Below are positions 58,567 to 61,891 of a DNA stretch of 64,000 nt, in pieces. The first letter of the stretch is position 1. The number at the start of each line of letters is the position of its first letter. Both the position numbers and the translations under genes were made by a program. The notes under the pieces were generated by a model. The model was not told where the DNA came from. It was given only the letters and a program-made list of their open reading frames with translations, and ran no database searches. The stretch covers positions 128,001-192,000 of the forward strand of contig DASZWM010000006.1 of NCBI GenBank assembly GCA_035546615.1. The letters run 5' to 3'. The DNA is from Minisyncoccota bacterium (GTDB taxonomy: Bacteria; Patescibacteriota; Minisyncoccia; Phycocordibacterales; SBAW01).

Positions 58567-58776
58567 TTACATTCTCCTGGTGATCCTGCCCTTTCCCCCG
58601 TAGGGGTCAAGCTTGACCGTCACCTTGTCGCCTACCAGGACCTTTATCCGGTGAAGGCGCATTTTGCCGGCCAGGTACGCAAGAATAGTTTCGCCCCCAT
58701 CAAGGTTGACCTTGAAGAGGGTGTTTGGGAGCGCTTCTTCGACTACTCCCCCTACTTCCTTATCCGACGTATCCAT
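58567..58776 (-). CDS. infA: Translation initiation factor IF-1
   Basis: ...[29 protein letters not shown]... S1-like OB fold. Confidence 0.95.
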
Positions 58777-58841
58777 TAGCGACAGCGTTTTCTATAGTAA
58801 CAAGTAGGCCCGCGGATGTCAATTTAGCCCTGAGCGGAGCC

Positions 58842-60143
58842 CTACTTTTGGGTGCCGGAAACCACGGTTATCTTGTCCGGATCGGCCGGGAAGCTCCCCT
58901 GCCAGAACGGACGGACCTTCGCCTCGGCGCGGCTAATGGCCGGCGCGAACGACTCAACTATGGCCTGGAAGGTGTCTTTTTTCTTGCCTACCAGCGCCGC
59001 TTTGAGGCCCGCCTGGTCGTACTGCCATACGAGGGTCGGGCTGCCGCCGAGCGTTATCGTAATATCCGCTCCCGGTTTCGTAGTGGTCGCGGCCGCAAGC
59101 GTCAGCTGGGAAACGTCCGCAAACGCGACCGGTTCGCCGTTGTAGGCGGACACTGAAGCGCGCGCGACAGCGGCGGCGAGCGCATCCACCTTCACTATGG
59201 CGCCCGTCATCGTTGCCGATTGCGCAAGAGTGGCGTTATTGGCGCCCGCGGGCGTCTGCGATGTATTGCTGAAGGTCAGCTGGAGGCTTCCGGGAATGAC
59301 GACGTAGTCTGCGGGGATCTGGGAGGTAAGCGAGGACTGAGCCGCCTGGCTCAAGCCCTGCTTGAGCGTGTCGGTGCCGCGGGCAAGATCGGCAGACGCG
59401 ACGGACGGCTCCGGCCCGACATATCCGCCGGAAATCGCCGAGGCCTGGGCATAGAACTTGTCGTAGCGCGGGTCGCTCTTGAAGCCGGGGATAGTGAAGC
59501 GCGTCTCGCCGCGATTGTACGCCTCGCCAGGCGAGTCCGCGTAGACGGTGGCGGTGGCCGAGCCGGGGGTAATAGTGCCGTCTGCGGCCTTCGTGCCGCC
59601 CGGTACCACGACGGAATCATGAATGCGGTAGATCTTGCCGTCCGGAGCCTCGAAGCGCGTATTGGCGATAAGGCGCTGGACATCGGTTCCCGCGGCATTG
59701 TAGATGGTGATGACGCCGGAGGCGCTGCGCGACACCTGCTTGGTGCCCGAGGCCGTAACGGTGGTGCTTGCCGAGCGCGTAACGGTCATCGTCTCGTAGC
59801 CGAGCTCGCCGCCCGCGGGATGCAGTTTTGCGGTAAGGGTAGCGGGCGGTGTTACCGGTTCCTGCTTCGGATACACGGTAACGGTCGCCCCCGCGAAAAG
59901 GGTCGAAAGGAGGAGGCCGGCCAGAGCGCACACCACGACGACCGCGGCTGCGATTATCACGAACAGGCGGCGGTTGCCCCGCGGGTGGCGGCGTATCATA
60001 GCAGGGCGTTCTTGGGGCATAGGGGTATCGATTTCGTCGTCCATATCCTGCGCGGGCGCGGCGCCGGTTTCGTGCCGGCGGCGCGAGGGAGATACCGGGA
60101 TGTTTCGGATAGAACGTCGCTCCGGGGGCACCATGTCGCGCAT
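58842..60143 (-). CDS. Hypothetical bitopic membrane protein (433 aa): Arg-rich cytoplasmic N-terminus, one TM helix, large Thr/Ser/Ala-rich extracytoplasmic domain
   Basis: TM helix LFVIIAAAVVVVCALAGLLLSTLF at ~residues 60-85; no catalytic motifs seen. Confidence 0.55.
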   Translation of the reverse strand: MRDMVPPERRSIRNIPVSPSRRRHETGAAPAQDMDDEIDTPMPQERPAMIRRHPRGNRRLFVIIAAAVVVVCALAGLLLSTLFAGATVTVYPKQEPVTPPATLTAKLHPAGGELGYETMTVTRSASTTVTASGTKQVSRSASGVITIYNAAGTDVQRLIANTRFEAPDGKIYRIHDSVVVPGGTKAADGTITPGSATATVYADSPGEAYNRGETRFTIPGFKSDPRYDKFYAQASAISGGYVGPEPSVASADLARGTDTLKQGLSQAAQSSLTSQIPADYVVIPGSLQLTFSNTSQTPAGANNATLAQSATMTGAIVKVDALAAAVARASVSAYNGEPVAFADVSQLTLAAATTTKPGADITITLGGSPTLVWQYDQAGLKAALVGKKKDTFQAIVESFAPAISRAEAKVRPFWQGSFPADPDKITVVSGTQK

Positions 60144-60189
60144 ACGTATAAGTAATTATACCGTAAATTTTTTGCCCGCCTAGGGCTTA

Positions 60190-61164
60190 TCAGGCGTAGC
60201 GTGACTTATCCACAAAAAGGGCCTCCAGCATAAGGGGCAAGTCAGGCCGCGCCCCGTGCCCGCCCATGAACGGCTGCGCGTGCCCAGTACGCACCGCGCG
60301 CACGCTGGCCCCGTCCTGAAAGAGTTCCGAAAGCGAGTCGTTGTCGCCGAGCGCGCGGGCGAACCACGTCTCGGAAAGCTGGGGCGCCAAAACGAATACG
60401 CTCTGCGCCGGAGCGACCCTGAGAAGCGGCTTGGCGACATCCGCGAACTCTTCCGCAAAATGGGCGGCCGCGTGGCGCAGCGGCTCCGGGGCCGGATGGC
60501 CACTGGCCCCGCGGCCTTCAAGGCTCAGATACGAGCGGGCCTCCTCCGGGCTCATGCCGCCGTGGGATATGAGCGTCCGCAGCAGCGTGTGGAGGCCCAG
60601 CGGCAGGGTCGCGCGGGCCTTCAGGGAGTTGTCGGCGACAAGCAGGAGCTCTGTCGCCTCCCCGCTCACGATGCATATAAGCGCCGGCCCTTCATCGGGA
60701 AAAAACGACAGCGCTCCGTGCAAGGCGGCGGCGCCGTATGGGTGCAGGCTCAGCTTCTGCTCGCCCAAAGTCGCCCGCGCCGCCGAGCGCAGCGTATCGC
60801 GCATATGCGGCATGAAGGTCGGGGTTCCCGCAAGTTCTATAGAGGCCCACGGGACGGAAAAGAACCCGGCAATATGGGCTACCTCGCCCTCGGTGCCGAG
60901 CGTTTCGTGCAGGCGCATGCGGGACGAAACCTCGCTTATGTGCGCGAGAGCTTCCTCAAGCGCCTTTTCCGTCTGGCGCGCCAGCAGCGCCGGATTATGG
61001 GTGCGCGACAGCGGCAAGAGGACGCGCTTTTCGGCGAACAGGCGCGGCGCCTCGCCGGGTGCAAGGCGCACGAGCGCCGCGGCAACGCTGCCGTTCTCGA
61101 TATCGGCTATCGCGACGGTCTTGCCTGCGCGTTTTTTCTTCCCGAACATAAAATAAGTATACAC
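60190..61164 (-). CDS. Hypothetical actin-fold (ASKHA) ATPase-like protein, PilM/FtsA-like
   Basis: N-terminus GKKKRAGKTVAIADIENGSVAAALVRL resembles the PilM/FtsA phosphate-1 region (G.D.G...K.V); second Gly-rich segment ICIVSGEATELLLV. Weak. Confidence 0.4.
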   Translation of the reverse strand: MYTYFMFGKKKRAGKTVAIADIENGSVAAALVRLAPGEAPRLFAEKRVLLPLSRTHNPALLARQTEKALEEALAHISEVSSRMRLHETLGTEGEVAHIAGFFSVPWASIELAGTPTFMPHMRDTLRSAARATLGEQKLSLHPYGAAALHGALSFFPDEGPALICIVSGEATELLLVADNSLKARATLPLGLHTLLRTLISHGGMSPEEARSYLSLEGRGASGHPAPEPLRHAAAHFAEEFADVAKPLLRVAPAQSVFVLAPQLSETWFARALGDNDSLSELFQDGASVRAVRTGHAQPFMGGHGARPDLPLMLEALFVDKSRYA

Positions 61165-61706: not shown

Positions 61707-61891
61707 TTTCGTAAAACCTTTCCTTACCAGAGTTACGTTACTTGGAACGAACAAACAACCGTTCCATATACTATTATATCATATATGCCTGTCTGATGTC
61801 AAGAACCTAAAAAAAGAGCTGTGCAGCTAGTTACCGTAGCGTAGCGCAAAAAAGAAAGCGTCCGGCAATGGATTGCCGGACGCTTTGGTAC

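Follow-up and report, generated by a model that had tools for sequence, protein, structure and literature searches.

What replaces the usual genes upstream of infA at this locus, and what might the products of the replacing genes do? In bacteria, infA is usually preceded by secY, adk and map. In the window (the whole stretch of DNA analysed, 64,000 nt in length, from a contig assigned to Candidatus Paceibacterota), the position upstream of infA was taken on the minus strand by two genes, here called A and B (Table 1), followed on the same strand 3' of B by infA (58567-58776), rpmJ, rpsM, rpsK, rpsD, rpoA, rplQ, rplM, rpsI, grpE and dnaK. Both ORFs, and their place upstream of infA-rpmJ-rpsM-rpsK-rpsD-rpoA-rplQ, had been given in a preliminary description and agreed with the ORF list; the replacement of secY-adk-map which it reported was likewise confirmed, as a 152-aa membrane ORF and alaS were located 5' of A. 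A Pfam scan of the 44 larger ORFs of the window returned no SecY, adenylate kinase, Met-aminopeptidase, Pil, FtsA or FtsZ domains. The gene A ORF extends up to a GTG at 61164 (60190-61164, 324 aa), but the ATG at 61149 is the likely start, MFGKKK being the first residues both of homologues and of the 319-aa protein called by NCBI (P0001). The segment previously quoted as PilM/FtsA-like, KTVAIADIENGSVAAALVRL, corresponds to residues 15-34 of A. A 430-aa call for B (P0034) is probably three codons late, given that MRDM/MQDM is conserved. The 12/12 promoter-like site was situated 5' of the A-B pair and of the 152-aa membrane ORF, and the 10/12 site within the 65 nt that separate B from infA. In this genome the terminator-like hairpin sets alaS apart from the A-B unit.

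Table 1. Coordinates of genes A and B, of the regions of protein B and of nearby signal-like sites (window positions)
Feature	Position	Strand	Description
Gene A	60190..61149	(-)	FtsA/PilM-like protein of the cytoplasm with ASKHA fold; short form, IC subdomain absent; ATG 61149 start, 319 aa
Gene B	58842..60143	(-)	Bitopic (N-in) membrane protein, 433 aa; ORF, >660 homologues, AlphaFold pLDDT 85 overall
B residues 1-17, MRDMVPPERRSIRNIPV	60093..60143	(-)	Conserved N-terminal cytoplasmic peptide, candidate docking site for A
Single TM helix, B residues 58-82	59898..59972	(-)	AlphaFold helix 58-82; Kyte-Doolittle maximum 3.1
Beta-barrel region, B residues ~85-247	59403..59891	(-)	Extracytoplasmic; common to GlxA domain 2 and baseplate J/gp47 barrel
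Long helix and alpha/beta domains, SIMPL-like, B residues ~250-433	58845..59396	(-)	Completes baseplate-J-like multidomain layout
Sigma-70-type promoter-like site, TTGACA-18-TATAAT, 12/12, with TG	61773..61802	(-)	Consensus match only
Terminator-like hairpin, strong, 14 bp stem, T-run	61855..61886	(-)	3' of alaS
Promoter-like site, TTGACA-17-TACTAT, 10/12, with TG	58794..58822	(-)	Consensus match only

Genes A and B are real, well past chance, and constitute a two-gene module conserved across Parcubacteria (class Paceibacteria). More than 660 homologues were retrieved for B, and 33 close homologues and 1833 cluster representatives (E<=1e-3) for A. Of 80 species-representative loci, 77 had an A-like gene directly 5' of B, with a median gap of 20 nt and overlaps in some, and this coupling persisted where extra genes separated B from infA. 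The usual gene order was alaS-A-B-infA (infA was found in 73 and alaS in approximately 70 of the 80 loci), which corrects the expectation for this class: in most sampled genomes alaS-A-B, instead of secY-adk-map, stands upstream of infA. None of the 80 loci carried pilus, divisome or phage genes beside the pair. Median identity was 40% for A and 48% for B, relative to 70-79% for the housekeeping neighbours, indicating that A and B evolve faster. Sequence searches with both proteins gave no qualifying Pfam or NCBIfam match (a weak signal for A, exopolyphosphatase, had an E-value of 0.087), all sources that name the two proteins call them 'hypothetical', and no description of the pair was found in the literature on FtsA, dcw, actin-like/PilM or baseplate J proteins of Patescibacteria/CPR/Parcubacteria.

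The assignment of A as a PilM/FtsA-like actin-fold protein was upheld by its AlphaFold model, which showed an actin/ASKHA two-domain fold closest to FtsA and also close to PilM, and by the matches of the long-form profile A3 (1e4f, E=1e-5; M. xanthus PilM, E=0.0029). FtsA scored slightly higher than PilM in structure and sequence comparison alike, with homology of A to FtsA supported at profile level only: profiles A1 and A2 gave no meaningful matches against PDB sequences, leaving A3 alone to reach FtsA and PilM, Pfam FtsA/SHS2_FTSA and PilM_2 did not match A, and its long-form relatives reached 14.6-19.5 bits against Pfam FtsA (cut-off 31.8). A word-indexed protein search with A3 produced 16 matches, all of them 'hypothetical protein' or unnamed. 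In its sublineage A has lost the IC (SHS2) subdomain; in its place, beta4 and alpha2 were joined in the model by only a short hairpin (residues 107-117), and by hhalign, an insert of approximately 75 aa present in long-form relatives was absent in the window's A. The last helix of the model (residues 309-323) was predicted confidently (block means, 98 and 88), ended one residue before the end of the chain and is taken to close the ASKHA core, while a C-terminal linker and amphipathic membrane-targeting helix were absent (model; Kyte-Doolittle maximum 1.56). The nucleotide motifs look partly substituted in alignment A1 (DIENGS for DxGxxx, a phosphate-2 motif without Asp, and the adenosine GG missing), and, as the IC subdomain was lost as well, A more probably serves as a scaffold than as an active ATPase.

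Protein B had been described as having an Arg-rich cytoplasmic N-terminus, one TM helix and a Thr/Ser/Ala-rich ectodomain of about 350 aa, and this topology was borne out. The tail (residues 1-57) was disordered with 19% Arg, the only hydrophobic segment (maximum at residue 61) formed a helix directly after RRHPRGNRR, in keeping with the positive-inside rule, and Thr, Ser and Ala made up 36% of the 350-aa ectodomain. Among 46 sequences, S11, I12 and R13 were invariant and M4, P6, R10, I15 and P16 at least 90% conserved, and the pattern [RKQDENT]-D-[IMV]-x(1-3)-P was present in 68 of 79 B proteins versus 0.5% of control ORFs. Residues 1-17 are predicted to be disordered when alone (pLDDT <50). 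Inspection by eye showed no simple correlation between the type of N-terminal motif (RSIRNIP or DIIPPSRR) and the form of A, the RSIRNIP type adjoining short as well as long A.

The modelled ectodomain of B has an architecture like that of phage baseplate wedge proteins. Baseplate J, gp47 and wedge proteins were its dominant structural matches and shared its multidomain wedge fold, and a strong structural match to GlxA domain 2 was also obtained. At the sequence level, PF21110 (GlxA barrel) matched the window's B with 22.6 bits (E 1.7e-4), below the cut-off of 27, and 38 of 46 members of the B family at E<=0.01 (best 7e-7); the SIMPL/BP26 match was at fold level only (11% identity). Pfam Baseplate_J and the PHROG baseplate families had no matches on B, Pfam SPOR, POTRA/FtsQ and SIMPL none above threshold, and B relatives were absent from IMG/VR viral contigs. 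A PilN/PilO- or FtsQ-like periplasmic fold, on which the preliminary description had made its reading of B depend, was not recovered, as PilN, PilO, GspL, GspM and FtsQ were all missing among the structural matches listed for B.

Protein A and protein B probably form together a new membrane-spanning scaffold, rather than part of a type IV pilus. With modest confidence, we regard the pair as a Paceibacteria two-protein transmembrane module on the FtsA-FtsN or PilM-PilN principle whose ectodomain is of a new kind. The analysis shows the two folds, the homology of A to FtsA/PilM, the topology of B and the conservation of motif and gene pair; binding of A to B, loss of ATPase activity in A, oligomerisation and the cellular process are what we infer. 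Protein A would be a cytoplasmic actin-like scaffold of the FtsA/PilM branch without a membrane anchor of its own, and B a type-II membrane protein whose extreme N-terminal peptide ([R/Q]-D-[M/I/V]-x-P-P...RSIRNIP), with basic stretches after it, would serve as the docking point for A and hold it at the membrane. The ectodomain of B may oligomerise, or contact the wall or a surface layer, and the module would then link a scaffold in the cytoplasm with an assembly outside the cell. The process served would most plausibly be envelope growth, division or surface architecture, and the genes neighbouring the pair in the 80 loci gave no pointer to one. In FtsA and PilM the IC subdomain supplies half of the peptide-binding cleft; since the window's A does not have this subdomain, docking between A and B cannot be exactly as in FtsA and PilM. 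The faster evolution of A and B, and two loci in which a motif-bearing B has no adjoining A, also count against the module. A bolder version, to be entertained only tentatively, is a new envelope-spanning machine found throughout Paceibacteria, with an IC-less A tethered by the B peptide and wedge-like ectodomains arranged as a surface ring or lattice. In such a machine A might polymerise and might be a pseudo-ATPase, a host-encoded baseplate J architecture would be coupled to a bacterial actin, and the role could lie in division, surface-layer organisation or an episymbiotic attachment site of ultra-small cells.

A divisome module, with A as an FtsA paralogue and B as a late-division partner of FtsN/FtsQ type, is unlikely, and the same grade applies to its mechanism, in which the B tail would switch the polymer state of A and the ectodomain would act on septal peptidoglycan synthesis. 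It agrees with the slight lead of FtsA over PilM, with the B tail ([R/Q]-D-hydrophobic at residues 2-4 and basic stretches, compared with R/K-D-Y and RRKK in FtsN), and with the peptidoglycan/division genes carried by the window (mraY, ftsW, murG, a PBP and an M23 peptidase). However, these dcw genes are approximately 20 kb or more away from the pair (mraY-ftsW-murG at 36.9-40.2 kb of the window), dcw linkage was not seen in any of the 80 loci, A has neither the membrane-targeting helix of FtsA nor, in this genome, the FtsN-binding IC domain, B has no SPOR or POTRA domain, and the likeness of its tail to FtsN comes down to a three-residue motif.

It appears rather improbable that A and B, though conserved as neighbours, work independently and do not form a physical complex. 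Synteny by itself is no proof of interaction, the alaS...dnaK block is conserved as a whole among related loci, and two loci (L063 and L084) have a B with the motif but no adjoining A. Against this, the pair stays tightly coupled despite insertions between B and infA, and an anchorless FtsA/PilM-like protein combined with a bitopic protein carrying a conserved N-terminal peptide is the layout of known interacting pairs. One A-B fusion (P0268) was also observed, once, on a 3.2-kb contig; it lends weak support to the link and could result from a lost stop codon.

The type IV pilus assignment made in the preliminary description, that is, a divergent inner-membrane alignment subcomplex of PilM with a PilN/PilO-like partner, was not sustained and is now very doubtful: the ectodomain is baseplate-J/GlxA/SIMPL-like instead, A does not match PilM_2, and neither pilB, pilC and pilT, whose presence had been proposed as a check, nor pilN, pilO and pilQ occurred among the window ORFs scanned or beside the pair in the 80 loci. 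Canonical PilM genes are moreover reported separately in groundwater Patescibacteria, being annotatable in 64-88% of MAGs, depending on filter fraction (PMC8672522). That B is what remains of the baseplate of a phage tail or contractile injection system, or a domesticated part of one, and A an unrelated neighbour, is highly improbable, for although baseplate proteins lead the structural matches of B, a phage origin is rejected on the absence of IMG/VR relatives and PHROG matches, B is membrane-anchored, its alaS-infA chromosomal position is fixed in many species without other phage or tail genes, and GlxA has the same barrel in a non-phage secreted protein.

Parcubacteria are abundant, mostly uncultivated and ultra-small, and their cell biology is poorly known. 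The A-B pair, read as the transmembrane module favoured above, is a concrete candidate for a lineage-specific link from cytoskeleton to envelope. With protein A, the FtsA/PilM branch of bacterial actins gains an IC-less form, in which the parts of the fold required for polymerisation and for binding a partner can be tested. For protein B, we found no earlier report of an entire baseplate-J-like ectodomain that is anchored in the cell membrane and encoded in the core genome; the protein is relevant to where phage baseplate modules came from and how they have been reused, as well as to the unexplained domain 2 of GlxA.

Compared with known systems, B shares its multidomain wedge layout with baseplate J, Mu gp47 and T4 gp6, with no match at the sequence level; those are soluble virion proteins encoded among tail and sheath genes, whereas B is TM-anchored and has housekeeping neighbours. 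In GlxA, the radical copper oxidase of Streptomyces lividans (PMC11022532), the domain 2 barrel (PF21110) is inserted in a copper-oxidase propeller, and B has no propeller; to the periplasmic SIMPL/BP26 proteins, B is alike in fold only. FtsA shares the two-domain ASKHA fold with A but has in addition the IC subdomain and C-terminal amphipathic helix, its Pfam models are unmatched by A above threshold, and the A-B pair usually has alaS and infA as neighbours, with no ftsZ/dcw linkage. Unlike FtsN, B lacks both the SPOR domain and the FtsN essential-domain region, and carries a baseplate-J-like ectodomain instead; the FtsN tail (R/K-D-Y and basic stretches) and B (M-R-D-M at 1-4 and RR/RRR) resemble each other in motif layout only, with no homology implied. 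The POTRA and beta domains of FtsQ/DivIB were not found in B. PilM resembles A in its ASKHA fold, while A-B is without pil neighbours and the short form of A without the IC half of the PilN-binding cleft. The ectodomain of B differs from the coiled-coil plus ferredoxin-like periplasmic fold of PilN/PilO and GspL/GspM (GspL being the fused equivalent of PilM-PilN). The A-B pair does contain a bitopic partner with a conserved N-terminal peptide, the arrangement known from PilM-PilN, and in B this peptide may dock onto A.

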